Below, piece by piece: positions 3,974 through 29,206 of a stretch of DNA of 48,525 nucleotides. Numbering within the stretch: the stretch's first letter is position 1; every line of letters starts with the position of its first letter. Under the pieces are notes generated by a model. That model was not told the origin of the DNA, ran no database searches, and saw only the letters and a list, made by a program, of their open reading frames with translations. The translations under genes and the position numbers were made by a program. The stretch comes from a virus: positions 1 through 48,525 of the IMG/VR virus record IMGVR_UViG_3300000976_000003; one strand, given 5' to 3'.

Positions 3974-6280
3974 ATGGAATTAATAAATTTTACTATATCA
4001 AAAAAAGGCTTTCTCGCTGTGCTGGTGAGCCTTTTTTTTATTGCAAAAGCTTTTGGTCAACCTATTATCAAAGGGAAAGAGGTTGATTTTTACAGTAGCG
4101 GTATCCAAGCGGTTGCCGCTGGTGGTGTATTTGTCTCTGACTTGAATGAGAACGATGAGTTTTGTAATTCGGTGACGGTATGGAACTGTACAGATTCATT
4201 TTTGACAGTTGATATATTGTCGGCATTAGACGTACAAGGTCCTCAAGTGATTCCTGCAGGTCATACATTGACTATGACTTTGATTTCTGACCGATTTGAC
4301 GAATTGTCAATCACAGCCAATGGCGCTGGTGACATATTGGTTAATGGAATAAGAGACAATAGAGATATTCGAGTACCGGGTCAAAACATTATTACAACAT
4401 TAATTCCTGCAAATTGTACAGTTTTGTCAGAGCCTATTGAAATTGAAGGTACTGTTGAAGTTGATTTTTCGGAACTAATTGAATGGTTGGCAGCCAACGA
4501 ATTGATGATTGATTTTACAGCCTTGACGGACTGGTTGGCAGAGAATGACTTAAATATTGATTTTTCTGAATTAACGGACTGGTTGGCGAGCAATGAATTA
4601 ACAATTGAAGGTATTGACGAAATAATAGCTTGCCTTCAAACCCTTAAAGATATATTAAGCGGAGAGCTAGATGTAAATATCACCAATGAAAACATTGATG
4701 TTAATGTTGATTTTTCTGACCTCACAGATTGGTTGACGGATAACGAAATAGCCATTGATTTTCAAGAGTTATTGGACTGGTTGGATGATAATGAATTAAC
4801 CGTTGACTTCTCAGAATTAACGGATTGGTTGGGTAACAATACGCTCGATGTAAATGTAGATTTTGCGGAATTAACGGATTGGCTGGATGATAACGAGTTG
4901 AATGTGAATGTGACAAATGACAGCATTAAAATATATGGTAGTGTAGAAATTATATATCCTGATGATTCGATAAAAGCAATACAAAAAGTAACTATATCAG
5001 GCGCAGATACTTTGTTTCGCACAAGACCAACAAGCATCATAAAATGTTATGGTGCTAGTGGAACGAGTACTTCACAACATATTAATACAGACAACAAAAC
5101 TGATGCGACTTTTTCAAGTGGAGGTACTGGAGGAACATCTTTGAAATGGCAATACAACCAAAACGGCATCAATGCTGATGGTGTACAAGATTTTACAAAT
5201 GACGTTACAAACTGCATCGATTCAGGAGAAATAGCCTATTTAACGATTATTGATGTTGCGGGTAATATACTAAAGTTCGACGCAACAGCATGGATGCTTA
5301 ACTCTACAGATTTTATAGTTTTTACTGGTACCAGTTCAGCAAATTTTGCAGGAAAAGTATTAGAAGCATACTTGACTTGTGGAGACGATGCGACAGGTGG
5401 TGAGGCGATATATTGCGGTGATTGTGAGACTGGTGGCAAGTGGCATGATATGCTGACAGGTGCTATTGTAGACCCTTCGTCATTGTATGAATGTAACGTA
5501 ACCTGTGAAACGGAAATAGTATCTGGTACAGCATGTTTGATTGACAACCCTGACCAACCTGTAATCTTCTTTTTTAAAAGAGATTGCGAAGGGCTTGTTT
5601 TAGCTTCTAATTATGTATTACCTGATTTTACTGTTGTTGACCCGAACGATGTGACAACCGATTGTACAAACGATGTAGATTTGATAGAAGTAAAAGAATG
5701 TGTCGTAGATGCCAATGGAGTCGAATGGATTCGATATGCCCTATATCTTAACGGTACTCTACAATCAGAGTTTTTTGTCAATTCAGATGATTTATCTCAA
5801 TCTACAAGTATTGGGGAATTTACTACCTGTACAGATGGTTTGGTAGTCGCTGATGTCAATTGGGATTACTGTGTAGATGGCGAAAAAGTTAAACTGGTCA
5901 CTTATACAAACAACATTTCAATAGCTTACGATCCTTTTACGAATGCAATTATAGAAAAAAAACCGTCTTGTTGTATTTGCGAAACAACCGACACAGAATG
6001 TAGTGAAAGCATCTGGACACTATACAGTAAATTCCAACAACCTCATCCAAACGCTGCAAGCTATGGGGCTGGTTTTACATTCATAGGAACGGTTTCGAGT
6101 GGTACGCACCCTGTTTTGGATATTTCTATTGATAACTGGTCAGTATACCAAGTTTGTAGCGAAAAAACACCAACACCAAATCCTGATGATAACTTACACG
6201 AATGGATAAATAGTAGTGACTTGAGTACTGTTACATTTACTTCACCACAGCCAAACTTAAGCCCAACATGTTGTCAGTAA
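3974..6280 (+). CDS. large repeat-containing protein, fibre/adhesin-like, with hydrophobic signal-like N-terminus
   Basis: 768 aa. The N-terminus is GFLAVLVSLFFIAKAFGQ. It contains seven DFSELTDWL-type 16-18 aa repeats and a Cys-rich C-terminal half. Confidence 0.6.
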   Translation: MELINFTISKKGFLAVLVSLFFIAKAFGQPIIKGKEVDFYSSGIQAVAAGGVFVSDLNENDEFCNSVTVWNCTDSFLTVDILSALDVQGPQVIPAGHTLTMTLISDRFDELSITANGAGDILVNGIRDNRDIRVPGQNIITTLIPANCTVLSEPIEIEGTVEVDFSELIEWLAANELMIDFTALTDWLAENDLNIDFSELTDWLASNELTIEGIDEIIACLQTLKDILSGELDVNITNENIDVNVDFSDLTDWLTDNEIAIDFQELLDWLDDNELTVDFSELTDWLGNNTLDVNVDFAELTDWLDDNELNVNVTNDSIKIYGSVEIIYPDDSIKAIQKVTISGADTLFRTRPTSIIKCYGASGTSTSQHINTDNKTDATFSSGGTGGTSLKWQYNQNGINADGVQDFTNDVTNCIDSGEIAYLTIIDVAGNILKFDATAWMLNSTDFIVFTGTSSANFAGKVLEAYLTCGDDATGGEAIYCGDCETGGKWHDMLTGAIVDPSSLYECNVTCETEIVSGTACLIDNPDQPVIFFFKRDCEGLVLASNYVLPDFTVVDPNDVTTDCTNDVDLIEVKECVVDANGVEWIRYALYLNGTLQSEFFVNSDDLSQSTSIGEFTTCTDGLVVADVNWDYCVDGEKVKLVTYTNNISIAYDPFTNAIIEKKPSCCICETTDTECSESIWTLYSKFQQPHPNAASYGAGFTFIGTVSSGTHPVLDISIDNWSVYQVCSEKTPTPNPDDNLHEWINSSDLSTVTFTSPQPNLSPTCCQ
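4000..4039. terminator. terminator-like A7-hairpin-T8 structure overlapping the 5' end of ORF 3974
   Basis: AAAAAAAGGCT...AGCCTTTTTTTT. The stem is GGCT/AGCC extended by A:T pairs, with a loop of about 17 nt. Confidence 0.3.
4463..4912 (+). repeat. seven in-frame 48-54 nt repeats encoding DF(S/T/Q/A)xL(T/I/L)(D/E)WLxxN(E/D/T)Lx(I/V), in two blocks (4463..4606 and 4709..4912)
   Basis: Read directly from the translation: DFSELIEWLAANELMI, DFTALTDWLAENDLNI, DFSELTDWLASNELTI, a spacer, then DFSDLTDWLTDNEIAI, DFQELLDWLDDNELTV, DFSELTDWLGNNTLDVNV, DFAELTDWLDDNELNVNV. Confidence 0.9.
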
Positions 6281-10618: not shown

Positions 10619-10882
10619 ATGACTCAACAACAGTTAGATAACATCGTTCGTCAAGTATTGACAATTTTAGGATTTGTTTTGCCTTTATTAGGTTTACAAT
10701 TTGATTTCGCACCGATCACGGATGCTATTATTCTAGTAGCTGGAGGTATTTATCAAATTATTCTTTTCTTCTCTGCAAAAAACAACCCTATAGCTGAAGA
10801 AGAAGTACAAGTTCAATCGATTGGCTCTACTAGTAGGGCAATTGGACGTGTATTGGGAATGAAATATAAAAACGCTGCATAA
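10619..10882 (+). CDS. holin-like small membrane protein (87 aa, two hydrophobic helices)
   Basis: Hydrophobic segments VLTILGFVLPLLGL and AIILVAGGIYQIILFF. It is the first gene of the lysis cluster. Confidence 0.5.
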   Translation: MTQQQLDNIVRQVLTILGFVLPLLGLQFDFAPITDAIILVAGGIYQIILFFSAKNNPIAEEEVQVQSIGSTSRAIGRVLGMKYKNAA

Positions 10883-11949
10883 TGGATATTTCAATACCAA
10901 AAAACTTTGCACCAAAAGTTGTTCCTGAAACTGAGGCAAGAGCCATGATGTCTGAAGAAATGGGGTATTTTATTGAGAAATGGAATCTTAAAGAAATTTG
11001 GAAGCAAACCAAAGGGGACATGGTGAAAATTGCTGTACTTGATACAGGAGCACCTACCCATCATGATTCCTTAGTACATGAAATGCATAATTTCACTTCT
11101 GACAAAGGAGAAGTTGATGCTAACGGCCATGGTTCACATGTAACAGGAATTATCAATGCTCAGCACAATGGTTTTGCCATCCGAGGGATTGCTCCCAATG
11201 CTCAAATTATTTCATGTAAGGTTTTGAATAAAGATGGCGCTGGTTCCAGTTCATGGATTGAAGATGCCTTGCAAATGATTCATGATAGAGATGATATCGA
11301 TATTGTCAATATGTCTCTAGGTTCGAGTAGCTTAAAAGATTCAGTTCGTGAAATACTTGTGAAACTCCATCAAAAAGGAGTGTCGGTATTTGTAGCTGCT
11401 GGAAATTGGGGGGCTAACATGAGCAATGCATACGCTATTCCAGAAACTTTTGCGGTGGCCGCTGCTGATAAGTTTGATAAACCTGCCTCGTTTTCTTCGA
11501 ATAATACTGAAAATGATGGAACTGGCTATGGAGTCAATATACGCTCCTTTGGAGTAGGTAATGCTTTTTGGGATGCTAGTGGTACTAGTATGGCATGCCC
11601 TTCTGTAGCTGGTGTAGCTGCTTTGATAATTAGTCAATGGAAAAAATCGAATCGAAACAAAAAATTCCCTCCTAAAGAGTTGTTCCGATTACTAAGAGAA
11701 ACAGCTAAAGATATAGCAGCCCCTGGCTTTGATGACAAAACAGGATTTGGACTGATTCAGCCAATTGTAGCTTTTGATGTGATTCGAGATTTACCGCCAG
11801 AAGGCCCAATTAAGGATATCCCAATAGACAAGCCTAAAGAAACAGAACCTCCCGTAGATTCAAAAAAAAACTCTTGGCTGATTGGATTGATTATTTCGAT
11901 AGTTATTTTCGTAATCCTAGCGGCGTTAATGTCCAGCCTTCAATCTTGA
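10882..11949 (+). CDS. subtilisin-like serine protease (peptidase S8) with C-terminal transmembrane anchor
   Basis: Catalytic motifs AVLDTG (Asp), HGSHVTG (His), NMSLG (oxyanion Asn) and GTSMACP (Ser). The C-terminus is WLIGLIISIVIFVILAALM. Confidence 0.85.
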   Translation: MDISIPKNFAPKVVPETEARAMMSEEMGYFIEKWNLKEIWKQTKGDMVKIAVLDTGAPTHHDSLVHEMHNFTSDKGEVDANGHGSHVTGIINAQHNGFAIRGIAPNAQIISCKVLNKDGAGSSSWIEDALQMIHDRDDIDIVNMSLGSSSLKDSVREILVKLHQKGVSVFVAAGNWGANMSNAYAIPETFAVAAADKFDKPASFSSNNTENDGTGYGVNIRSFGVGNAFWDASGTSMACPSVAGVAALIISQWKKSNRNKKFPPKELFRLLRETAKDIAAPGFDDKTGFGLIQPIVAFDVIRDLPPEGPIKDIPIDKPKETEPPVDSKKNSWLIGLIISIVIFVILAALMSSLQS

Positions 11950-12671
11950 TAGATTTGGAAATTATACAAAATCTACTGACCAGCCGTCGCAATCGTCCAT
12001 TCCTTCGTGATTCGAAGAAATATAAATTACGAAAACTAAAAGGTATAGTAGTCCATTGGACTGCGAATACTGGTTATGGTGCTGACGATACAGCAAATCG
12101 AAACTACTTTAATCGAACAGATAGATACTGCTCTGCTCATTATATAGTCGACCACGATAGCATTACTCAAGCTATTCCAGATACAGAGGTGGCTTACCAT
12201 ACAGGCTGTGTACTACCCAACTCTCGTTCTAAGAGCAGAAAGGCTACCGATGAAGGTGTTGGTCTTGGTACTTGGGAAAATAGAAAGTGGTTGAATCCAA
12301 ACTATACTACAATAGGGATTGAAGCATGCGTGAATAAGGATGGTGATTTCAAACAAATGTACGTCAACTTAGTCAAGTTGATTGCTAAGAAATTACTTGA
12401 AAATCCTCATTTGTCAATTACAGATGTGTACAGGCATTATGATGTTTGTGGTAAGCCATGCCCGGGATTTGCTTTGGAATCAGAATATTGGAAATATTTG
12501 CTTGAAGATGTAAATAATGTCGTATTTGGGCCTGTTCAAAATCCAAATCTTGAAGAAATGGAAAATACGATGGGAAGTCAAAAACCTGAAAGCGAACCTG
12601 TAAAATCAGAAATCATTAAATTAGCTTTGATGAAATGGACTATTGATAAAAGGAAATATGTAGTAAGTTGA
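11874..12671 (+). CDS. N-acetylmuramoyl-L-alanine amidase (Amidase_2/PGRP-type endolysin); start uncertain
   Basis: Motifs VVHWTAN, SAHYIVD, AYHTG, IGIEAC and RHYDVCGKPCPG. There is no in-frame ATG, so the candidate starts are TTG 11874 or TTG 11946 (which overlaps the protease TGA). Confidence 0.8.
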   Translation: MADWIDYFDSYFRNPSGVNVQPSILIDLEIIQNLLTSRRNRPFLRDSKKYKLRKLKGIVVHWTANTGYGADDTANRNYFNRTDRYCSAHYIVDHDSITQAIPDTEVAYHTGCVLPNSRSKSRKATDEGVGLGTWENRKWLNPNYTTIGIEACVNKDGDFKQMYVNLVKLIAKKLLENPHLSITDVYRHYDVCGKPCPGFALESEYWKYLLEDVNNVVFGPVQNPNLEEMENTMGSQKPESEPVKSEIIKLALMKWTIDKRKYVVS

Positions 12672-12694
12672 TATTTAATTTGTGAAATAAATAT

Positions 12695-12732
12695 AAAAAA
12701 GCCTTTGTACTTGATTGTATAAAGGCTTTTTT
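12695..12732. terminator. bidirectional hairpin terminator between convergent genes
   Basis: AAAAAAGCCTTTGTAC-loop-GTATAAAGGCTTTTTT: the A-run pairs with the T-run and the core is GCCTTT/AAAGGC. Confidence 0.75.
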
Positions 12733-12751
12733 CTTAACTTTCTTCAGAATA

Positions 12752-13402
12752 TTATTCCTTAGTCTCAAGTTCGTCAGCAGTATCTGGAACTGGAGTCTCA
12801 GTTTCTTCTGTGTGTTTTTTGCCCTTATCTAAATCTCGTTGATTTTTCTCTATTTGCTGCTCTCTCAATTTTTCAGTTTTATACGTAGCGTAGCACCAAC
12901 CAATTAAGCCTATAAGAAAAGTGAGCCAACCGAGTGTTTTTAACAGGCATGTATATGATTTATAAGAATTGGATTGTTGTTGTAATATATCTATTGCTTT
13001 ACCTGAGTATTTTAATTTAATATTATCAATTGATAAATCTTGTCCATAATTTTTCCCCACAAGATTTTTTTCATCAAATTCAACAATTAACTTTTTACCT
13101 TCTAATTTAAGTTTTTGTATTTGAATGGTTTTTGTTGATTTTTTGATAAGTTTATTTAAACTATCCAGTTGTTTGTTTAAGTGTTGGTCCAAAGCTTTCA
13201 ATGAATTAACCTTTTTTTCTAAATCAAGTATTTTCATAGAAAGCAAAGCTTTCTCCATCTCAAACTGGTTTGTTTGAATTTCTAATTCATGTTGTTTCCT
13301 TAAAGGATAAAACATAGCAACGAAAACCATAGAAATCCCTCCAACAAAGAGGAATTTAAACAGATTATCTGAACTGGAAAATATTTTAGTGAATTCCCAC
13401 AT
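12752..13402 (-). CDS. membrane protein with one hydrophobic helix near each end flanking a long coiled coil (216 aa)
   Basis: FLFVGGISMVFVAMFYPL and LGWLTFLIGLIGWCYATY flank K/L/E/Q heptad-like sequence. The start overlaps the upstream stop (TAATG). Confidence 0.7.
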   Translation of the reverse strand: MWEFTKIFSSSDNLFKFLFVGGISMVFVAMFYPLRKQHELEIQTNQFEMEKALLSMKILDLEKKVNSLKALDQHLNKQLDSLNKLIKKSTKTIQIQKLKLEGKKLIVEFDEKNLVGKNYGQDLSIDNIKLKYSGKAIDILQQQSNSYKSYTCLLKTLGWLTFLIGLIGWCYATYKTEKLREQQIEKNQRDLDKGKKHTEETETPVPDTADELETKE

Positions 13403-14367
13403 TATCTAAAAGTATTTCTTTGACCTTGGTTAGCCCCTAGGGTGTCCAAGGTTCTGATTAATGAATCTAATTTAGTATTGTGCTGTGGATTGTTAATAAA
13501 ACCTATTGCTTCATTCTTTTCGTTATTCGGTACATTGACATCGCCTGGTTGGCATGTTACTAAAGAAACGGTCAATCCAAATAAAACTGCAACTCTGCGT
13601 GGAAATTTAAAAGAGACAGTACCTGGAGAATGAAGGGTAAGTTTTATAGTGTTTTGTTGTATATTTTCATTTAAATTAAAGTGATTGTTCAAATCATTTG
13701 TGATATCTTGAACTTCTTGCATTAATTGTAACAACGAAGATACGTTTATTTCTTCATTTGTACTGACATTTAACACATAAAACCCACTGTCACCTTTTAA
13801 ATATAGAGTATTAGTAGCGAAATCTATGTATTCACTATATTTACTAATATCACTAATAGCATGCCGATTTGATTTGATTTTATAAAACATCGGATCTAGT
13901 TCAAGCATTGTTTTTTCTTCTATCCATTTTACTCTTCTTCTTTTATTAAAAACACAGTTACCATAAGGAATATCATCAATATATATGTTGTCATCATCAA
14001 TCATTCCAAAAGAAAGCTTATCTGAATTGTAACTTGGAATAACAATAATATCTCCTCGATTTAGATCTTTGAATTTTTTTAGTTTATTAAATACACTAGT
14101 GACTTTAGATTTGCCTTTTTTTGATTGTAAGTCTAAAATGGGGTCATTATTAGCAACCCTTGACTTGTTAACTTCAACACCTATTTTGTTTTTCAATAAA
14201 TCGACATTATTTAATAGGTCTTCTATAGTTATCGTATTCCAACCAATCGCTATAAAATTATTATCTAAGTAAGCACTATAGTTTTTACCTCCATTTGTTC
14301 TGATGAAATAGTATTTCTTTTCTTCTCCAATAAAATTGACTCTGTCAAATAAGAGTTGAGTGTCCAT
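13402..14367 (-). CDS. hypothetical protein; the N-terminal domain resembles the domain fused to Mrr-type restriction/defence proteins; C-terminal half unknown (321 aa)
   Basis: The N-terminal pattern is YYFIRTNGG..Y..YLDNNFIAIGW...RGDIIVIP...FGMIDDD...RRRVKWIE. The family assignment is from memory and is unverified. Confidence 0.6.
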   Translation of the reverse strand: MDTQLLFDRVNFIGEEKKYYFIRTNGGKNYSAYLDNNFIAIGWNTITIEDLLNNVDLLKNKIGVEVNKSRVANNDPILDLQSKKGKSKVTSVFNKLKKFKDLNRGDIIVIPSYNSDKLSFGMIDDDNIYIDDIPYGNCVFNKRRRVKWIEEKTMLELDPMFYKIKSNRHAISDISKYSEYIDFATNTLYLKGDSGFYVLNVSTNEEINVSSLLQLMQEVQDITNDLNNHFNLNENIQQNTIKLTLHSPGTVSFKFPRRVAVLFGLTVSLVTCQPGDVNVPNNEKNEAIGFINNPQHNTKLDSLIRTLDTLGANQGQRNTFR

Positions 14368-14388
14368 GTGTTCTTTATTTTAAGATAG

Positions 14389-14402
14389 GTAGGCATGCCT
14401 AC
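14389..14402. promoter_or_regulatory. perfect 14-bp palindrome GTAGGCATGCCTAC, candidate operator upstream of the 14367 gene
   Basis: It is self-complementary and GC-rich in AT-rich DNA, and lies 22 nt upstream of the start codon. Confidence 0.3.
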
Positions 14403-14676
14403 AGTGATAATTACTTGATTTGATTAAATCTCCAGAAATCATAAAGTAAAAACACAATATATCAATGAAATTGATTACAAGTAAAAACAAAACAAATAGT
14501 TTTGTTTCTTAAAACAATTTGTTGTACATTTGAAGCAACAAATAAATACTATGCAGAAAGAACTGGTGACCATCTACGCTTTATTGCTCTTAACTGATGC
14601 TTTACTGCTCCAATCTACTACATTGGAACAGAATAATATTTTTGAATTTCGTGCTGAACTTCTGGAGTGGGAGTAC

Positions 14677-14784
14677 TCAATTCTGTTGTAATTTCTTTTC
14701 TCTGAGCTTTTTATTACGCTCAGACAATTCTTTATCTTTCTGTCGAAGCTTATCGTTCTTTTTCTTTAAATCCTGTTCCTTCAT
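14677..14784 (-). CDS. possible micro-ORF (35 aa, K/E/R coiled-coil peptide)
   Basis: MKEQDLKKKNDKLRQKDKELSERNKKLREKKLQQN. The ATG lies 1 nt after the stop of the upstream micro-ORF. It is below the size threshold of the ORF track. Confidence 0.25.
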   Translation of the reverse strand: MKEQDLKKKNDKLRQKDKELSERNKKLREKKLQQN

Positions 14785-14785
14785 G

Positions 14786-14929
14786 TTATAAATATGTTAT
14801 TAGTAATGTTACAATGATTGCTATTGATACTATTGTATAGAATAATATCAATTCACTCTTTGGTATTTCTTCATTTTCTTCGTAGCCCGTTAGAAATAGG
14901 CGAGCGAAGTCTTGAAGATATTGGTGCAT
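14786..14929 (-). CDS. possible micro-ORF (47 aa) with C-terminal hydrophobic helix
   Basis: MHQYLQDFARLFLTGYEENEEIPKSELILFYTIVSIAIIVTLLITYL, in the same orientation as the flanking leftward genes. Confidence 0.3.
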   Translation of the reverse strand: MHQYLQDFARLFLTGYEENEEIPKSELILFYTIVSIAIIVTLLITYL

Positions 14930-14985
14930 GTGTAAAATTGTTTAAAACTCTAATTGTATTTGTTAGTGTAGTAGAGATAGGGTGG

Positions 14986-15339
14986 TTACTTCTTCTTCAG
15001 CAGATAATGATAAACATTTTGGCTTCCTACAGTAATCACATAAGAATCTAAGAATTCATAGCCATTTTTGCCCATAAAGTTAAGGGCATCTATCATAGAA
15101 TTTAGAGTTAATGGCTTGCCATTTTCATCTTTTATGACAGTATCTTTTGCTGCTGTCCAAAACTTTGTCTCTTGGCCGAAATCTAATTGTATCGTAACTT
15201 TCTTGCTTAGCAATTTTGCTGTACCAACAATACGGACATACTCAACATCAATCTCGGACAATTCTACGCCATTAATTGTTTGAGAAAAACCAATAAAAGG
15301 TAATAAAAAAAGGAGTGAAGTGATTAAGACCTGTTTCAT
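14986..15339 (-). CDS. small secreted protein (117 aa) with signal peptide
   Basis: The N-terminus is MKQVLITSLLFLLPFIGFSQ. Confidence 0.6.
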   Translation of the reverse strand: MKQVLITSLLFLLPFIGFSQTINGVELSEIDVEYVRIVGTAKLLSKKVTIQLDFGQETKFWTAAKDTVIKDENGKPLTLNSMIDALNFMGKNGYEFLDSYVITVGSQNVYHYLLKKK

Positions 15340-15367
15340 GTTATATTTGTGTTTGGTTAAAAATCTC

Positions 15368-15547
15368 TTATGAGAATATCATCATAATTATACTATATAT
15401 AACAACTCCCCAAATCATAAAAGCTAGCAAATCGAAAAAGAAAGGGGGTAATATTTTGCCTTTCCTTTTTGCATAATGGCTACCATTTTGCTTATACTCA
15501 TCTTCCCATGAACGGGTAATGTATTTGATGATGGATTTAGTATTCAC
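15368..15547 (-). CDS. possible small membrane protein (59 aa, GTG start overlapping upstream TGA)
   Basis: I translated it by hand. The C-terminal hydrophobic segment is FFFDLLAFMIWGVVIYSIIMMIF, and the start forms a GTGA overlap with the 15544..15828 gene. Confidence 0.35.
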   Translation of the reverse strand: MNTKSIIKYITRSWEDEYKQNGSHYAKRKGKILPPFFFDLLAFMIWGVVIYSIIMMIFS

Positions 15548-15828
15548 TTATTAAACCGATGCTTGATTCTTTTATACAATTCATCGCTAATCCCATTAAA
15601 AGAAATCACGATTTTTCTATTATTGACTTCAAAATCCCAGCTAGTTTGTTTTCTTAAATCCCAACCAAGTTTAAACCACTCTTGAACCGTCTTGCAATCG
15701 TTAAGGTTTTCAGTAATGTGAGCTAGGTTGTTTTCTTCTAAAATAGATTTATTGTAATCTGGGCCTGTTTTTATGAAATACTTGAATTGTATCCCCTCGA
15801 AAGCATCGGCAGTTGTGTTTTCGTCCAT
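15544..15828 (-). CDS. hypothetical protein (94 aa)
   Basis: ATG ORF that starts 2 nt after the stop of the upstream leftward gene. Confidence 0.55.
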   Translation of the reverse strand: MDENTTADAFEGIQFKYFIKTGPDYNKSILEENNLAHITENLNDCKTVQEWFKLGWDLRKQTSWDFEVNNRKIVISFNGISDELYKRIKHRFNK

Positions 15829-15829
15829 G

Positions 15830-16243
15830 TCATTGTTTTTTTTGGGTTAATTCACGTATTCTTTTATTACGCTCACTAAGTAATCTATCTCTTTCTCGTA
15901 ATTGTTCGTTTAGAGCCTCAACCTCGGCTTCCAGTTTCTTATTTGCTTCATTTAGGTCATACAACTTCACTTTTAACTCCTTCTCTGAATCGGATACCTG
16001 GGCAGCTCGCTCTTCTTCGGTTAGAAGTTCGTTAGGATATGCTTGTTTTAATGTGTTTATCATTTCAGAAGTCACAGTACCATACCCTTTTTTCCTTAAA
16101 CTAGAAATAAACGAGGTTTTTTTACCTATAACATTCTCTATGTCCGTGTATGGAATCTTTCTCTTCTTGTCAGCTTTCAACACTTTGACAAGTTCTAAAA
16201 ATTCAGCTTGTTCTTTTGAATATTTGATAATATTTGCCACCAT
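15830..16243 (-). CDS. candidate DNA-binding regulator with C-terminal coiled coil (possible lysogeny repressor), 137 aa from ATG 16243
   Basis: It is the first gene of the leftward operon and is divergent from the rightward early genes. Direct-repeat operator-like sites lie just upstream. The C-terminal half is a leucine-zipper-like coiled coil. Confidence 0.35.
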   Translation of the reverse strand: MVANIIKYSKEQAEFLELVKVLKADKKRKIPYTDIENVIGKKTSFISSLRKKGYGTVTSEMINTLKQAYPNELLTEEERAAQVSDSEKELKVKLYDLNEANKKLEAEVEALNEQLRERDRLLSERNKRIRELTQKKQ

Positions 16244-16268
16244 TCGATATAAAATCAATAAATATTAA

Positions 16269-16305
16269 TTATTTGTCATAAAATAATTATGATTTGTCAT
16301 AAGAT
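16269..16305. promoter_or_regulatory. two direct repeats ATTTGTCATAA spaced 21 bp (16271..16281 and 16292..16302), candidate operators
   Basis: The 11-mers are exact copies with similar flanks, and they lie in the divergent intergenic region. Confidence 0.45.
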
Positions 16306-16311
16306 TCTTTG

Positions 16312-16319
16312 TATATTTG
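16312..16319 (+). promoter_or_regulatory. TATATTTG box matching the Bacteroidota -7 promoter consensus TAnnTTTG
   Basis: Exact match, 22 nt upstream of ATG 16341. The same octamer recurs at 22416, 29159 and 32683. Confidence 0.4.
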
Positions 16320-16340
16320 CAATACAATAACAATACAACG

Positions 16341-16490
16341 ATGAAGTTATCATTCACATTTACTAATGACGACGACTTTGACAAGCTGCTGAAAAAGTTC
16401 GAGCAACAACTCAAAGAATTACAAAAAACAGTTTTTCAGATTCAAAACTACAAATTTGAATCTGAAGTAGAATTAGTTGAGGAGGAGTGA
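16341..16490 (+). CDS. possible micro-ORF (49 aa, acidic)
   Basis: An ATG ORF downstream of the TATATTTG box. It overlaps the 3' end of the convergent ORF 16473..16718 by 18 nt, so one of the two may be spurious. Confidence 0.25.
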   Translation: MKLSFTFTNDDDFDKLLKKFEQQLKELQKTVFQIQNYKFESEVELVEEE

Positions 16491-16718
16491 ATTTATCTTT
16501 TCAGTAAGTTCACTAGGTAGGTTTTTGATATTCAAATCCATACCTGTCAATCCTTTTCTAAAAGTTATCTCAACTTCACCACCATGGCTTTTTATTTCAT
16601 CCATGAAGGGTTCTAGCTTGGCTAATAACTGCTGTTTTCTAAGATAAGCTCTACGCTTTCTTACTTCTTGAGTCAACTGTTCAGAGTCAAGTTTAGTGAA
16701 TGATACATTAAAGTTCAT
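16473..16718 (-). CDS. hypothetical protein (81 aa)
   Basis: ATG ORF. Only 26 nt separate its start from the divergent ORF at 16745. Confidence 0.4.
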   Translation of the reverse strand: MNFNVSFTKLDSEQLTQEVRKRRAYLRKQQLLAKLEPFMDEIKSHGGEVEITFRKGLTGMDLNIKNLPSELTEKINSLLLN

Positions 16719-16744
16719 CTACAAATGTATAAAAAATATACAAT

Positions 16745-16924
16745 ATGTCAAAAAATAACACCGTAGCGATATATCCTATACGAATTTCAGAGGACGACAT
16801 GAATCTAATACAAGAGTTACGTCTACTCTTAAAAAATAAATTAAATCTCTCTAAGATACCTACAGATGCTGAAACAATCAGGCTTTCTGTTAGGCATTCA
16901 CATAAGGATTTATCAAAAGGGTAA
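16745..16924 (+). CDS. small protein (59 aa), possibly ribbon-helix-helix-like
   Basis: MSKNNTVAIYPIRISEDDMNLIQELR... shows a beta-strand-then-helix pattern. It is below the ORF-track threshold. Confidence 0.35.
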   Translation: MSKNNTVAIYPIRISEDDMNLIQELRLLLKNKLNLSKIPTDAETIRLSVRHSHKDLSKG

Positions 16925-17000
16925 ACGGTTAAAGGAAGGTGTATCGGAGGGAGAAACAGTTACAAGATAATCATTTTTCAAACAATATCAAAACAGCAGG

Positions 17001-17177
17001 ATGTCAAAAGAAAAAGAACAACAGGAAATCGACGAACAAAAACGAGTTGAAAAAATCAGAACTGAATGTCTAGACAAGTTACTGGGAGAACGATTAGGAG
17101 GCGACATCAGTGAAGAAGAAATGACCAATTTGGTCAACCGAGCTCGACAAATGGCTGAGTTCATTATTAACGGGTAA
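17001..17177 (+). CDS. small acidic protein (58 aa)
   Basis: ATG ORF that I translated by hand. It lies in the rightward early region. Confidence 0.35.
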   Translation: MSKEKEQQEIDEQKRVEKIRTECLDKLLGERLGGDISEEEMTNLVNRARQMAEFIING

Positions 17178-17227
17178 ACCGATTACGGGATTAACAATGT
17201 CCCCTTATTTCATACTATGACTAAACA

Positions 17228-17270
17228 GAGGACGGCGCAAACATTCACCAAAACAAACTTTGCCGTCCTC
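17228..17270 (+). terminator. hairpin GAGGACGGC...GCCGTCCTC (9-bp stem, 25-nt loop), weak T tract
   Basis: The arms are perfectly complementary and are followed by ACTTTTG. Confidence 0.3.
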
Positions 17271-17319
17271 ACTTTTGAGAAAATCAATTTTTATAAACCA
17301 ATAAATTCAAAATTCAATT

Positions 17320-17781
17320 ATGGAAGATTTAAATGTAGCAGTAGCAAAAACAGAAAACCAAGCTACTCAAGAACAAGGCTTGATTGCTAAAGTGGTTGAC
17401 CTGTCTTTGATGACCAACGCCAATGACTTTCCTGAATTAAAGCAAGAAAGCGTAGTTCCTTTTGACTTAATTTCTGAGTACTGGACTCCTGAAACAGAAG
17501 GAGAAGAAAGATTGTGCGTGTTCGACAGATTAGAAGAATCCAATTGTGTAGACAATCAAACAGGAGAAGAAAAATTACTCTTGTGCGCCTTCTTCTACTA
17601 CAAAGACGATAACGGAATAATAGCTCGGTTTAGAAATGGCTCAAAAGTATTAACTGGTGAGATTGAAAACTTGTCACCAGTTTCAGGCACATGCTTCAAA
17701 ATACGCTACAACGGTAGGGTTAAAAACAAAACCAACAGCAATAGTAGCGATAGATGGTCAGTATTCGCAATTCGAGACTAA
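17320..17781 (+). CDS. hypothetical early protein (153 aa)
   Basis: ATG ORF with no recognisable motif. Confidence 0.55.
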   Translation: MEDLNVAVAKTENQATQEQGLIAKVVDLSLMTNANDFPELKQESVVPFDLISEYWTPETEGEERLCVFDRLEESNCVDNQTGEEKLLLCAFFYYKDDNGIIARFRNGSKVLTGEIENLSPVSGTCFKIRYNGRVKNKTNSNSSDRWSVFAIRD

Positions 17782-18996: not shown

Positions 18997-19067
18997 TGCA
19001 GGATAGAGAAACGGTATCTTGCTGGACTCATGATCCAGAGTTGGAGGTTCGAATCCTCCTCCTGCGA
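18997..19067 (+). tRNA. tRNA with CAT anticodon (elongator Met or Ile2-type)
   Basis: I folded a cloverleaf by hand: acceptor TGCAGGA/TCCTGCG (U1:G72), D stem GAGA/TCTT, anticodon stem CTGGA/TCCAG with loop CTCATGA, and T arm GGAGG-TTCGAAT-CCTCC. Confidence 0.8.
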
Positions 19068-19178
19068 CGAAGCCCTGAAATAAATTAGCAGATAATTAAC
19101 ACGGTGGGAGACCAAACAGGGCTGCTAGACACTGGAAGCGTTTCAGACTCCAAAGCAAGGGTTGCAAACCTTGTGATT

Positions 19179-19249
19179 TTGTTGGCTAGTTTAATGGCAG
19201 AACGCATCGGCTCTACGATGAAGATAAGGTTCGATTCCTTACCAACACC
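19179..19249 (+). other. tRNA-like element with defects (possible pseudo-tRNA or tRNA-derived att fragment)
   Basis: It has a canonical T arm TAAGG-TTCGATT-CCTTA, a 6/7-bp acceptor, and a D arm GTTT-AATGGCA-GAAC. However, the anticodon stem CATCG/CGATG encloses only 6 nt (GCTCTA), and 3 nt link the acceptor to the D stem. Confidence 0.35.
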
Positions 19250-20134: not shown

Positions 20135-20270
20135 AAAGAAATCTAAAGAACAAATCCGTCAGGAAGAAATTAAAAAAGTCCAAAAACAAGGGGCGTTTTT
20201 TATGTCCCAATTAAGTTATGACGTACCAAAAGTCACATTTCCTAAATTGTCAAAACCTAAGCAAAAATGA
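20127..20270 (+). CDS. possible small basic protein (47 aa; ATG-started part of ORF 19992..20270)
   Basis: MPKKKSKEQIRQEEIKK... Its stop overlaps ATG 20267 (ATGA). Confidence 0.3.
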   Translation: MPKKKSKEQIRQEEIKKVQKQGAFFMSQLSYDVPKVTFPKLSKPKQK

Positions 20271-20974
20271 GTGAAGTATTGATATACGACCAGCAAGGTT
20301 ATTTAATTGACCCGCATCGACCAGATCCAACACAATATTTTGTTGCTGTGATTTGCTTGATTTGTTTTTTATTCTTGGCTTTAAAGCCAGTAGATATAAA
20401 AAACACGACCTCTTTATTGGAAACCTCTACTGTATCAAATTGTACTGATACAGTTGCCAATAAACCAAGCAGTATCAAACCTAAAACAATCTTTGGTTTG
20501 CCGATTGAAAAAGCAGAAAAATTCATACAAAGGTTTAAAGATGTGGCTATTTATGAGCAACAAAAATATGGTATACCTGCAAGCATAAAACTAGCTCAGG
20601 GTTTACTCGAATCCAAATCAGGAACATCCTTGTTAGCAATTCAAAATAATAATTATTTCGGAGTTAAATGTTTTTCTAAAACATGCAAAAAGGGGCATTG
20701 TACCAATTTGTCAGATGATAGTCATAAGGATTTTTTTAAGAAATATGATTCTGCATGGCTTTCTTTCCGTGATCATTCAAAATTACTACAGAAAGAAAGG
20801 TATAAGGATTTGTATAAAAGCAAATCATACACTGCTTGGGCTTTTGGTTTGCGAAAAGCTGGGTATGCAACTGATGAAAAATACCATCGAAAGATTATCA
20901 AGATAATAGAAGATTTAGAATTGTATCAATACGATAAACACTATTCAGAAAAGAATCCATCTGTTATCAGATGA
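20267..20974 (+). CDS. membrane-anchored peptidoglycan hydrolase, glucosaminidase/GH73 (FlgJ-like) domain
   Basis: N-terminal hydrophobic helix YFVAVICLICFLFLAL. Motifs AQGLLESKSG, NNNYFGVK and AGYATDEKY. Confidence 0.7.
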   Translation: MSEVLIYDQQGYLIDPHRPDPTQYFVAVICLICFLFLALKPVDIKNTTSLLETSTVSNCTDTVANKPSSIKPKTIFGLPIEKAEKFIQRFKDVAIYEQQKYGIPASIKLAQGLLESKSGTSLLAIQNNNYFGVKCFSKTCKKGHCTNLSDDSHKDFFKKYDSAWLSFRDHSKLLQKERYKDLYKSKSYTAWAFGLRKAGYATDEKYHRKIIKIIEDLELYQYDKHYSEKNPSVIR

Positions 20975-21026: not shown

Positions 21027-21097
21027 GAAGGATTGTCTGAGTGGCTAGGAAGCGGTCTGCAAAACCGTCTACAAGGGTTCGAGTCCCTTATCCTTCT
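21027..21097 (+). tRNA. tRNA-Cys (GCA)
   Basis: Acceptor GAAGGAT/ATCCTTC, anticodon stem GCGGT/ACCGT with loop CTGCAAA, and T arm AAGGG-TTCGAGT-CCCTT. Confidence 0.8.
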
Positions 21098-21117
21098 CAT
21101 AGTGTTTCATAGTGTTT

Positions 21118-23890: not shown

Positions 23891-24644
23891 TTTAAGCCTA
23901 ATAGAAAAGATATTCTTAGCACGGATAGTCTATCTACAAGGACAGGAAGGATGTTTCGCCTCAAACGCTTATTTCGCTGATTTTTTTCAAGTTTCAAGAA
24001 GTAGATGTACTCAAATTTTGAAATCATTAGAAGAAAAGAAATGTGTAAAAATAACACTTGAGAGAAAAGGTAAAATGGTAGTAAGAAGGACGATAAAAAT
24101 ACTTAATGCAACTATTTATGAAGACGAAAACAAGGTGGTGAGAATACTAAACAACCCTGTTTACTTTTCTAAACAAGGTGGTGAAAATACTAAACAACCC
24201 GTGGTAAATATTCTAAACAACCTATTTAATATTCTAAAAGATAAGAATAGAATAGGAAGAATAGATAAAAAGGAAGATAGAAAAAAAGATAGAGAGCCGC
24301 TCACTCACGATGATTTGAAATACTCAACTTTAATTAATTTTTTACCATTTCGTGATACAGCCCTAAATAGCAAAATTGTTCACGAAGGTTTGAAAATGAG
24401 TTTTGAAACAAAAGGGTTTACTCTTGAAAAACTACCAAACTTGCTTGAAAGATTCGCTATGGCTCAAATGACAAAAAACCATGCAGGTTGGCGAGACTTC
24501 CAAGGTTTCTCGAAACACTTTCAAAGTTGGTTGAATTACGAATTAAATGCTCAGACTAAAAATAAGCAATTTTCGTCTAGCCAGTCAAAAACAGAAAAAG
24601 AACAAGACGCTGAAATTTTAAAAGCATTAGAAAATTACCAATGA
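23838..24644 (+). CDS. putative replication organiser / winged-helix DNA-binding protein containing iterons
   Basis: An HTH-like N-terminus (FFQVSRSRCTQILKSLEEKKCV) and iteron-like DNA repeats inside the gene. Confidence 0.4.
   Translation: MANLAGIWIPIDLWRITNLSLIEKIFLARIVYLQGQEGCFASNAYFADFFQVSRSRCTQILKSLEEKKCVKITLERKGKMVVRRTIKILNATIYEDENKVVRILNNPVYFSKQGGENTKQPVVNILNNLFNILKDKNRIGRIDKKEDRKKDREPLTHDDLKYSTLINFLPFRDTALNSKIVHEGLKMSFETKGFTLEKLPNLLERFAMAQMTKNHAGWRDFQGFSKHFQSWLNYELNAQTKNKQFSSSQSKTEKEQDAEILKALENYQ
24131..24240 (+). repeat. iteron-like direct repeats (candidate replication origin)
   Basis: CAAGGTGGTGA(G/A)AATACTAAACAACCC at 24131 and 24174, the related GTGGTAAATATTCTAAACAACC at 24201, and AATATTCTAAAAG at 24228. 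Confidence 0.55.
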
Positions 24645-26196: not shown

Positions 26197-26481
26197 TGAA
26201 ATACATCGCTAAGTTTTCCAATTTCAGGGGGCGTATTTGTGGTGTGTCATACCTTAGGATTTGTAAATCCTTGGTGCTAAAAATGTATGTTCTTGTCTTG
26301 AAAGATAATTTATTTTACAAAACCCCAATTATTAAAAGTTGCATTGCAACGAAGAGAAACAAAGCAAAAAAGCTATATAATTTCAATTGATAAACCAATC
26401 ACCCCGCCGCCAAACCGGAACGCTAACGACCACAGCGGTTGCACACGCTACGATTTGGAGGTGGGTTTGATAAACATAATT

Positions 26482-28047
26482 ATGCCGAGAAAAAATTCAT
26501 ATTTAACAGCAACTGACCAATTTTGTGGAGCTGGAGGAAGTAGTTCAGGAGCAAAAGCAGCTGGTGTCGAAGTTAAGATGGCTCTGAATCATTGGGAATT
26601 AGCTATTGAAACTCATAATACCAATCATCCAGAGGTCGACCATGATTGTACAGATGTACAAGCATGTGACCCAAGGCGATATCCGTCAACTGACATTTTG
26701 ATAACTTCACCTGAGTGCACCAACCATTCATTGGCAAAAGGAAGAAAGCGAAAATTCCAAAACCAATATGAGATGTTCGGTAAAGTGGATATTAAGCCTG
26801 AAGAAGAAAGAAGTCGAGCGACAATGTGGGATGTACCAAGGTTTGCTGAATTTCACGATTACAATATCATTATTGTTGAAAATGTTGTTGATGCAAGGTA
26901 CTGGCGGTTATGGGATGCTTGGTTGATGGCAATGCACTCGTTAGGATACAAACATAAATGTTGCTATCTGAATTCTATGTTTTTTCATCCATGTCCTCAG
27001 TCCAGAGATCGCATGTATGTGGTTTTTTGGAAAAAGGGAAATCCCTCTCCAAATTTAGATTATACTCCAACTGCACATTGCCCTAAATGTGCAAAAGACA
27101 TCCAAGCGGTACAAGTTTGGAAAAAGCCTGATAAAAAATGGGGAAAGTATAAGCAACAATATTTATATCGTTGTCCGAATGATGGAGAAATAGTAACCCC
27201 TTACTATTATGCAGCTTTCAATTGTATAGACTGGACCATGCCGGGTCAAAGAATTGGAGACCGCAAAAAACCGTTAGCAGAAAAGACTATTGCACGGATT
27301 GAGTATGGTCTTGAAAAATATGGAGATGAACCAATAGTAATCACTAATCGATATACTAGTGGTATGAATTGCCGTGTCAAACCATCGATATCAAATCCTT
27401 TACCTACACAACCAGGAGACCAATCACATTCTATTCTAATGCCGTTTTTTGTCAATAGCGAACACGCACAGAAAGAACGTAGCCGTTCAGGAGCGGATAC
27501 CCTTTGGACACAAACAACTGCTCAAACAACAGGTTTTGTGCTTCCATACATTTTATGCGGAAACTACACACCTGGTTGGGTTAAAAATATGGCTCAGCCT
27601 ATAGGAGTAGTTACTACATCTGACCATCATTCTCTTTTGAGTGTACCTCTAGTAATAGAAAATTATGGGAAAAGCATGTCAAAACCTTCAAGTGCACCCA
27701 TTGGAGCAATCACTACGAGTACTGTGCATGGTGTTTTGGCAACAGAAAAAGTAAGTGCTTTTCTTTCATATTATTATTCTGCATCCAAAGGAGCAAGTGG
27801 AATTAAAGCAGCAATCAATACAATTTGTGCAAGAGAAGGGGTGAGTTTGGTAACTTCTAAGAATTTGAAAATAGAGGATTGTCATTATCGAATGTTGAAA
27901 CCTCACGAAATACAGGCAGCAATGGCTTTTGCGGATGATTACATTGTAATAGGGAATAGTAGACAGAAAACGAAACAATTAGGCAATGCAGTAACTCCTC
28001 CAGTAATGGAATGGTTGGTAAAGCAATGTGTTGAAACTCTAAACTAA
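26482..28047 (+). CDS. DNA (cytosine-5) methyltransferase (521 aa from ATG 26482)
   Basis: Motif I DQFCGAGGSS, motif IV SPECTNHS (catalytic Cys), motif VI IVENV and motif X QLGNAVTPPV. Confidence 0.85.
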   Translation: MPRKNSYLTATDQFCGAGGSSSGAKAAGVEVKMALNHWELAIETHNTNHPEVDHDCTDVQACDPRRYPSTDILITSPECTNHSLAKGRKRKFQNQYEMFGKVDIKPEEERSRATMWDVPRFAEFHDYNIIIVENVVDARYWRLWDAWLMAMHSLGYKHKCCYLNSMFFHPCPQSRDRMYVVFWKKGNPSPNLDYTPTAHCPKCAKDIQAVQVWKKPDKKWGKYKQQYLYRCPNDGEIVTPYYYAAFNCIDWTMPGQRIGDRKKPLAEKTIARIEYGLEKYGDEPIVITNRYTSGMNCRVKPSISNPLPTQPGDQSHSILMPFFVNSEHAQKERSRSGADTLWTQTTAQTTGFVLPYILCGNYTPGWVKNMAQPIGVVTTSDHHSLLSVPLVIENYGKSMSKPSSAPIGAITTSTVHGVLATEKVSAFLSYYYSASKGASGIKAAINTICAREGVSLVTSKNLKIEDCHYRMLKPHEIQAAMAFADDYIVIGNSRQKTKQLGNAVTPPVMEWLVKQCVETLN

Positions 28048-28950: not shown

Positions 28951-29158
28951 AATGCTTATTTTTACAATATTGTTGTGTTCTTGTTTTGTCAACCAACTTT
29001 CAAAATCATCTAAAAACCTGTATATCAACACTTTAAATAAAATACCGTGCACTTTCGATTTAATGTTTAGATACTTTTTGTTTGAACTAATTAGCTTTAA
29101 ACGGTATACTTTAACTTATTTCGCATCATTTCAACCTACATCATTCTATAAAAGTAGT

Positions 29159-29200
29159 TATATTTGTTTTGTTAAAACATTTTGTAAACAAAACAAATAT
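29159..29200 (+). promoter_or_regulatory. TATATTTG box (29159..29166) overlapping a 13-bp near-perfect inverted repeat ATTTGTTTTGTTA/TAAACAAAACAAAT upstream of int
   Basis: Read directly. It sits in a 250-nt AT-rich non-coding stretch (28951..29206) that is also a candidate attP. Confidence 0.35.
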
Positions 29201-29206
29201 GCTACT

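Follow-up and report, generated by a model that had tools for sequence, protein, structure and literature searches.

A mobile two-gene DUF8426 cassette in a temperate phage: a protein with a predicted reader fold and membrane anchor, its clade-specific membrane partner, and a possible role in anti-phage defense

The stretch of DNA analyzed here (the window) comprises all 48,525 nucleotides of the viral record IMGVR_UViG_3300000976_000003 of IMG/VR, in which two leftward genes, here called A and B, form a compact cassette facing the end of the rightward late genes (Table 1). An earlier note, made from the letters alone, had described two minus-strand open reading frames (ORFs) of 321 and 216 amino acids (aa), overlapping in a TAATG that suggested translational coupling, lying head-on against the end of the late operon and bounded by a bidirectional hairpin terminator, and each of these features was found at the coordinates it gave. 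The overlap can be read directly in the sequence, and the adjacency of the two genes recurs throughout the clade described below. The last late gene encodes an amidase endolysin, and the convergent ends of this gene and of B are 80 nt apart. The hairpin between them has a stem of 16 nt with 94% complementarity and a loop of 6 nt, is flanked by an A-run and a T-run, and is the strongest terminator-like site of the region, in which 8 such sites were observed vs. 2.2 expected. The perfect 14-bp palindrome reported upstream of A is also present, at a distance of 21 nt and not the 22 nt originally counted. Since the other 23 copies of the cassette are not preceded by a comparable palindrome, it is specific to this phage (to its regulation, if to anything) and not typical of the system, and it is possibly a phage-specific operator or a short hairpin in the 5' untranslated region. 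With GC contents of 29.7% and 30.0%, respectively, A and B rank third and fourth lowest among the 53 genes of the phage (gene mean 35.2%, standard deviation 3.0). One positional claim was not borne out: the cassette had been placed beside the lysogeny module in a repressor-like orientation, whereas 14.5 kb separate the cassette from the integrase, and none of the other leftward genes nearby (14.9-16.7 kb) was recognizable as a repressor.

Table 1. Coordinates of the cassette, of the predicted parts of its products and of associated features in the window.
Feature	Position	Strand	Remarks
Amidase endolysin	11874-12671	+	Last gene of the late block; PHROG endolysin families, E 1e-30
Bidirectional intrinsic terminator	12695..12732	both	Between the convergent endolysin gene and gene B
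Gene B	12752..13402	-	216 aa; ORF search
B residues ~152-172, second hydrophobic helix	12887-12949	-
B residues ~14-32, first hydrophobic helix	13307-13363	-
TAATG, stop of A (TAA) overlapping start of B (ATG)	13400..13404	-	Read directly
Gene A	13402..14367	-	321 aa; ORF search
A residues 274-321, short acidic helical tail	13405..13548	-	Predicted to lie outside the cytoplasm
A residues ~257-273 (RVAVLFGLTVSLVTCQP), hydrophobic helix	13549..13599	-	Predicted membrane anchor
A residues ~156-256, alpha/beta middle domain	13600..13902	-	Ends in the invariant (N/L)xQSPG
A residues ~10-155, N-terminal YTH/PUA-like domain (predicted)	13903..14340	-	Foldseek, PDC-S02 match
Perfect 14-bp palindrome GTAGGCATGCCTAC	14389..14402		21 nt 5' of the ATG of A; single occurrence in the window
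Sigma-70-like promoter match TTGATA-16-TATGAT	14438..14465	-	36 nt upstream of the palindrome; weak
Tyrosine integrase	28952-30412		Arm-DNA-bind_5 and SAM_5 domains; 14.5 kb from the cassette

Protein A belongs to the Pfam family DUF8426 (PF28530; DUF, domain of unknown function), as shown by a precomputed hit on protein P0001, which is 100% identical to A and is encoded on the same contig; scans of A against NCBIfam and against a Pfam version that does not contain PF28530 gave nothing significant. A also matched PHROG 10226, a family of unknown function, with an E-value of 1.5e-40 over residues 9-253 (profile positions 12-249 of 369). An exhaustive, profile-free homologue search (E <= 1e-3) returned at least 743 clusters (50% identity), with members in Bacteroidota, in Bacillota and in the phages, satellites and plasmids of both, and the 150 representatives listed are mostly 300-370 aa long. 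These relatives align with A over nearly its full length, and the C-terminal 155 residues or so, which the earlier note could match to nothing, are thus not an orphan region.

To describe the architecture of A, we used an AlphaFold2 model built with the family alignment as input (predicted local distance difference test [pLDDT] 89.6, predicted template modeling score [pTM] 0.85). The model consists of an N-terminal domain (~10-155), an alpha/beta domain (156-256), a helix (257-271) and three short helices that run to the C-terminus (281-292, 294-309 and 313-320). Among 25 diverse members of the family, the invariant residues of the N-domain are Y19, R23, G42, D106, P111, G121, K142, R143, and W148; in the QSPG motif that closes the middle domain (S247, P248, G249), S247 and G249 are listed as invariant, and the alignment contains no conserved catalytic residues. 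When the model was compared with the PDB by Foldseek, ranks 1-11 were all eukaryotic YTH domains (probability 0.90-0.99, E 7.5e-3 to 5e-2), with template modeling (TM) scores of ~0.42-0.53 normalized to the target. Since the top 11 fold matches are all YTH domains, the N-domain of A, as modeled, is of the PUA-like (YTH/EVE/ASCH-class) fold. Twenty-four N-domains of the family, when scanned with Pfam, gave only sub-threshold matches (E 0.03-0.04), to UPF0113 PUA in two cases and to EVE and PUA_3 in one each. The middle domain gave weak Foldseek matches to ferredoxin-like and ACT folds, and residues 171-234 gave a sub-threshold Pfam match to PCDH15_12th. We regard this match, and the other weak ones that emerged from scans of A and B (Cas6_N, FtsL, Tetraspanin and response regulator), as noise or as hints of fold only. 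PDB sequence searches with A and with the family profile found nothing relevant, a homologue search with an N-domain profile found 7 short fragments and revealed no other domain fusions, and tblastn of the N-domain against plasmids returned further DUF8426 proteins only.

The N-domain is, on the other hand, shared in sequence with a candidate defense protein. The PADLOC model PDC-S02 matched residues 18-153 of A (E 2.2e-14, profile positions 3-125 of 324), and it matched 10 diverse relatives with E-values down to 8e-29, the matches ending by position ~180, and mostly before 160, of profiles of 299-346 positions. We did not count A as a PDC-S02 protein, which would require most of the profile to be matched, since at most about the first half of it is covered. 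PDC-S02 is an unvalidated single-gene candidate whose N-terminal 125-160 residues are homologous to those of A while the C-terminal halves differ. In one DUF8426 relative, the N-domain region also matched the middle of a type II restriction-enzyme model. The PADLOC search had been proposed in the earlier note, which likened the N-domain to one fused to Mrr-type restriction nucleases and other defense proteins. In a general sense this comparison is right, considering PDC-S02 and the restriction-enzyme model, but the domain is not Mrr_N, as neither A nor any of the 24 family N-domains matched that Pfam profile at E <= 1.

Directly after QSPG, at residues ~240-275, the hydropathy maximum occurs at the same place in nearly all of the full-length proteins among the 150 representatives, and in distant members it is a clear membrane span with Kyte-Doolittle values of 2.2-3.3. 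The flanks of this helix carry more K/R before it and more D/E after it, the flank on the tail side being poor in K/R, a bias that fits a cytoplasmic N-terminus and an external tail (N-in/C-out). Since a hydrophobic helix at 257-273 is found family-wide, A is probably anchored in the membrane and not free in the cytoplasm. The soluble cytoplasmic sensor proposed earlier is thus at odds with the conserved membrane helix of A itself, and also with the finding that most of the family has no membrane partner such as B (see below). In the clade whose members are followed by B, the helix often ends in a clade-typical Cys, within the pattern K/R, hydrophobic run, L-x-[SAG]-C. The strict PROSITE lipobox core was present in 9/24 A proteins with B (L004, L013, L017, L019, L022, L023, and L027-L029) vs. 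0/29 without B, and a looser test for Cys after the helix was positive in 46/57 and 8/74, respectively; the window copy, with LVTC, fails the strict pattern. In this clade, the internal helix of A resembles a lipoprotein signal peptide located ~250 residues into the protein.

Protein B contains two hydrophobic helices, one near each end (Table 1), separated by coiled-coil sequence, as the earlier note had described from the sequence and as both hydropathy and the AlphaFold model indicate. The helices of the model (11-88, 92-122, and 134-200) form a long hairpin between the two membrane helices, and B is accordingly modeled as a two-transmembrane helical hairpin, and its description as a coiled-coil protein is supported. 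The N-terminus, which includes the first membrane helix, is strongly conserved (MWEFTKIFSSSDNLFKFLFVGG…PL; motif SDNLFKFLF..G); it is followed by a helical hairpin of ~120 residues, by the second membrane helix with invariant G158, G165, and W169, and by a charged tail. The structure search suggested in the earlier note, which led from A to YTH domains, returned only generic coiled coils for B. No HAD domain and no other Pfam or NCBIfam domain was detected in B. Its closest homologues (P0006-P0009) are 44-49% identical, and three of them, P0006-P0008, whose loci were read, are each encoded immediately 3' of a DUF8426 gene.

To establish how strictly the two genes are linked, profiles of A and B were built and all ORFs in 58 fetched loci were searched with hmmsearch. 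Results showed that B lies directly downstream of A in 24/24 distinct loci of the window's clade, with A-B junctions of -17 to +12 nt in the other loci of the clade, and that B is absent from 29/29 other DUF8426 loci. The B-bearing genomes are mostly Bacteroidota (Saprospiraceae, Mucilaginibacter, Pedobacter, Flavobacterium, Chitinophaga, Rapidithrix, and others), and the loci without B come mostly from Bacillota. The length of A also differs, being ~300-333 aa in B-bearing loci and mostly ~330-395 aa, with a longer tail, in those without B. In two Bacteroidota loci, a 329-aa DUF8426 gene is followed not by B but by an overlapping ORF of 71 aa (L032, 6649-6864; L034, 6987-7202), which encodes two hydrophobic (membrane) helices and whose two copies are 65% identical to each other. 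A-B is therefore an autonomous and translationally coupled two-gene unit that moves as a block. Since B is present in 24/24 vs. 0/29 loci and an alternative 71-aa partner exists, A is the constant element of the system, and its membrane partner is optional and exchangeable.

To learn in what company the cassette travels, 104 neighboring ORFs from 16 chromosomal A-B loci were scanned with Pfam and PADLOC. Pfam identified N6 methylases (3), MmeI-type IIG enzymes (2), an MvaI/BcnI endonuclease, a C5 methylase, ResIII/DEAD helicases, AbiEii with DUF6088, DUF4411, and two integrases; PADLOC identified components of type I, II, IIG, and III restriction-modification, AbiEi/AbiEii, PDC-M23A/B, NsnA, AriAB, HamB, and HEC-09. 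One A-B copy adjoins a tyrosine integrase of Bacteroidota type. The single-gene relatives keep different company: DUF8426 genes without B lie between a cI-like repressor and the integrase in Streptococcus phage IPP63 and Staphylococcus phage SP276, occupy the same slot in a metagenomic prophage and in a plasmid-borne element of Levilactobacillus, and stand just upstream of the integrase in the satellite Javan462. Over 28 single-gene loci, the most frequent neighbors were HTH_3 (9), phage integrase (7), PemK (5), and ImmA/IrrE peptidase (4), and phage terminase, RusA, dUTPase, Abi_2, and HicB modules were also found nearby. Considering the defense and prophage neighbors, the variety of loci and the low GC content, the context marks the cassette, by association only, as an accessory conflict gene that moves horizontally.

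Several described systems resemble the cassette in part. The entries for DUF8426 and PHROG 10226 assign no function and record no B partner, fold or membrane anchor, although the whole family shares with A the N-domain, the middle domain, QSPG, the hydrophobic helix and a tail; the window's mostly Bacteroidota subclade differs from the rest of DUF8426 in that its tail is shorter and a gene for a two-transmembrane protein invariably follows downstream. With YTH/EVE/ASCH readers, such as those fused to type IV restriction nucleases, A shares the predicted fold class and conserved aromatic, acidic and basic residues, but those readers are joined to a nuclease, whereas the domain of A sits on a membrane anchor. 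The earlier note's parallel with lambda RexA/RexB goes no further than the broad concept of a sensor combined with a membrane protein: each system is carried by a prophage and consists of two genes, one for a larger protein and one for a membrane protein. RexA is soluble and RexB spans the membrane with four helices, whereas B has two hydrophobic helices, A bears a membrane helix of its own, and most relatives of A have no partner. No Rex-named match was obtained in PADLOC, PHROGs, Pfam or NCBIfam, libraries whose individual content of Rex models was not checked. A two-gene layout like that of A-B is also found in Metis (MisA/MisB in type I, MisC/MisB in type II), in which the N-terminal PUA-like pocket of MisA senses N6-methyl-dAMP (m6dAMP) and the same nucleotide triggers the type II effector, the membrane protein MisC (10.1101/2025.11.05.686725). 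The resemblance is one of logic only. Metis includes the HAD-phosphatase MisB, whereas A-B has neither a HAD-phosphatase partner nor a metallophosphatase, and MisC differs in its three membrane helices and in the nature of its cytoplasmic pocket. Homology to MisA was also rejected, since alignment of the N-domain with three MisA N-termini (Supplementary table 3 of that study) by hhalign gave a probability of 0.4% and hmmsearch gave E >= 0.4. As for the two-transmembrane (2TM) effectors of the cyclic-oligonucleotide-based (CBASS) and pyrimidine-cyclase (Pycsar) antiphage systems, the only match was PDLC00713 (E 0.0018), restricted to residues 131-177 around the second membrane helix of B and likewise regarded as noise or as a hint of fold, and no cyclase was present among the 25 most frequent Pfam and PADLOC families listed for the neighbors of 16 related loci. 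A full-text literature search on DUF8426, PDC-S02 and PUA-like transmembrane anti-phage proteins yielded nothing relevant beyond Metis.

We favor the view that the cassette is a mobile accessory unit, or "moron", whose most likely role is to protect the lysogen against other phages; this defense role is inferred from association, and we put it at about an even chance. In the mechanism that we propose, the N-terminal 255 residues of A would face the cytoplasm, with A held at the inner membrane face, and the PUA-like pocket would bind a nucleic-acid-derived cue that arises on infection. The predicted pocket would be formed by the invariant Tyr, Trp, Asp, Arg, and Lys-Arg (Y19, W148, D106, R23, K142, and R143), and the cue might be a modified mononucleotide, as for the pocket of Metis MisA, or else a base modified within DNA or RNA. 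The signal would then travel via the QSPG hinge to the membrane helix, and A and B would oligomerize and damage or depolarize the inner membrane, so that infection is aborted. Since B is missing from most of the family, A probably combines the roles of sensor and minimal effector, and B could be either a clade-specific co-effector or a regulator that restrains A. More speculatively, DUF8426 as a whole may be a class of membrane-tethered readers of modified nucleotides or nucleic acids, independent of Metis, in which a pocket for cues such as methylated mononucleotides is coupled directly to a killing or blocking membrane helix, and to which the Bacteroidota branch would have added a hairpin partner and, often, an internal lipoprotein-type signal yielding a lipid-anchored periplasmic tail; we regard this broader proposal as rather improbable.

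Several observations weigh against the defense reading or against the structural assignments on which its mechanism draws. The assignment to the PUA-like fold reflects a modest fold similarity (E ~1e-2, TM score ~0.5 on the target), and the N-domain of A has no significant Pfam match to YTH, EVE, ASCH or PUA. The helix of the window copy (RVAVLFGLTVSLVTC) is a borderline span, with Kyte-Doolittle values of 1.47 over 19 residues and 1.95 over 15. The model of B is of low confidence (pLDDT 69, pTM 0.33), and a positive-inside analysis leaves the side on which its hairpin lies undecided, the K/R distribution being 5.0 vs. 4.9. Several chromosomal A-B copies adjoin housekeeping or metabolic genes. 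Finally, the single PDC-S02 representative assayed by others did not protect E. coli B against T4, T5 or T7 (10.1101/2024.09.26.614923); this representative, however, shares only the N-domain with A and was assayed in a foreign host.

The most serious rival is superinfection exclusion at the envelope, in which A and B in the inner membrane would block DNA entry without killing the cell, in the manner of Sie2009, Ltp or SieA; the cytoplasmic domain of A might trap or mis-route incoming DNA while its tail and the hairpin of B disturb the injection channel. It is a serious rival because of the prophage slot and the membrane location. The sie and ltp genes of related dairy phages occupy the repressor-integrase slot, where the single-gene relatives are found in Streptococcus and Staphylococcus prophages, and both A and B are predicted to lie in the membrane. 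Moreover, Ltp is a lipoprotein, a lipoprotein-like Cys often ends the helix of A in the window's clade (with the strict core in 9/24), and the products of the leftward genes beside the cassette are likewise small secreted or membrane proteins. Known superinfection exclusion (Sie) proteins, however, do not carry a reader-like cytoplasmic domain of ~250 aa, the chromosomal copies of the cassette lie among intracellular defense systems, and no sequence similarity to any Sie family was found in PHROGs or PADLOC. We consider exclusion possible though improbable, and count it in addition to the defense reading. A role in lysis is far less credible still: B would assist the adjacent endolysin as a protein of spanin, holin or antiholin type, a notion prompted by the 80 nt that separate the two genes and by weak PHROG matches of B to Rz-like spanins (E 0.04-0.05). 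These matches are not significant, the cassette is on the opposite strand with a terminator in between, B has two membrane helices, and in bacterial chromosomes B always accompanies DUF8426 without lysis genes nearby. Identification of B as an Rz-like spanin was accordingly rejected, and we hold any lysis function to be very improbable.

Two other explanations dispense with an anti-phage function. The cassette might have a housekeeping or regulatory role, A being, for example, a reader of methylated nucleic acid (RNA or DNA) tethered to the membrane, or a regulator released from the membrane, which would suit the YTH-like fold, the absence of conserved catalytic residues and the chromosomal copy that directly follows prs, the gene for ribosomal protein L25 and pth. 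Such a role is, however, difficult to reconcile with a patchy distribution tied to mobile elements, with a genomic position that differs from locus to locus, with neighbors enriched for defense and prophage genes, and with a GC content below that of the rest of the phage, and we judge it unlikely. Slightly less likely again is an addiction or toxin-antitoxin-like module that stabilizes mobile elements, in which a membrane toxin (A or B) would be restrained by its partner without acting on phages directly. The tight coupling of A and B, which always move together, their occurrence on phages, integrative elements and plasmids, and the frequency of PemK and HicB modules beside the single-gene clade are what such a module would lead one to expect. 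Yet 29 of the 53 loci examined contain a single gene with no partner, which does not suit a toxin-antitoxin pair, A and B have no match among known families of toxins or antitoxins, and a conserved reader-like domain implies the sensing of a ligand.

The remainder of the window gives the setting of the cassette. Since it encodes an integrase, the phage is temperate, and its host is of Bacteroidota type. The contig ends (1-49 and 48477-48525) each consist of 3.3 copies of one 15-nt unit (CGCTGAAAAAGCTGC); because they overlap by 41 nt within this tandem repeat, the sequence represents either a closed circle or a complete genome with terminal redundancy, and the block of late genes continues across the ends. 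No DNA similarity to GenBank phages was found for the cassette or for the terminase-portal region, and scans of IMG/VR with A and with the endolysin gave no match. Sigma-70-like matches such as that upstream of A (Table 1) are in total no more frequent than in shuffled sequence, and Bacteroidota promoters follow another consensus; their -7 motif, TAnnTTTG, was not found upstream of A, and Rfam gave no match within 12000-17500. The ORF directly 5' of that of the endolysin (10882-11949) encodes a subtilisin-like protease (S8) whose C-terminus carries a hydrophobic helix, and the two ORFs overlap by 76 nt if the endolysin is counted from a TTG start; the true start of the endolysin may be further downstream. 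On the other side of the cassette, the leftward genes at 14786-15547 (-) encode small secreted or membrane proteins, namely one of 117 aa with a Bacteroidota-style signal peptide (MKQVLITSLLFLLPFIGFSQ), one of 59 aa with a C-terminal hydrophobic helix and one of 47 aa with a hydrophobic tail. They have no PHROG or Pfam match and may be further lysogenic-conversion or exclusion genes.

Elsewhere in the window, a C5-cytosine DNA methyltransferase of 567 aa (26344-28047; PF00145, E 5e-28) is encoded just upstream of the tyrosine integrase. A cytosine-methylating phage also encodes the reader-fold protein A, and no link between the two was found. The early region contains a second gene resembling a cell-wall hydrolase (20267-20974, +; PHROG endolysin and tail-endopeptidase, E 2e-33), far from the lysis genes, and ARAGORN identified three tRNA genes there (18997-19068, 19179-19249, and 21027-21098), called as Met (CAT), Cys (GCA), and one with an abnormal two-base anticodon. 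Imperfect 48-nt tandem repeats (4461-4832) occur inside a structural gene of 768 aa (3974-6280), and 21/43-nt repeats (24128-24238) occur inside an early gene.

The finding is not categorically new, since the family is catalogued as a DUF and as a PHROG of unknown function and its N-domain is part of a PADLOC candidate. What appear to be undescribed are the YTH/PUA-like fold predicted for the N-domain, the conservation of a predicted membrane anchor, the subtype in which A is strictly paired with a two-transmembrane hairpin protein, and the alternative 71-aa partner. If the cassette does protect lysogens, a widespread family would be added to the anti-phage repertoire, with a layout not described before, i.e., a sensor of reader fold anchored directly in the membrane and served by optional membrane partners. 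In that case, a function would also be found for an accessory gene that is common in streptococcal and staphylococcal prophages, where it lies in the repressor-integrase slot. The strict linkage of A and B in one clade vs. the single-gene state of the other relatives, moreover, constitutes a natural experiment on what a partner contributes to a sensor-effector protein.

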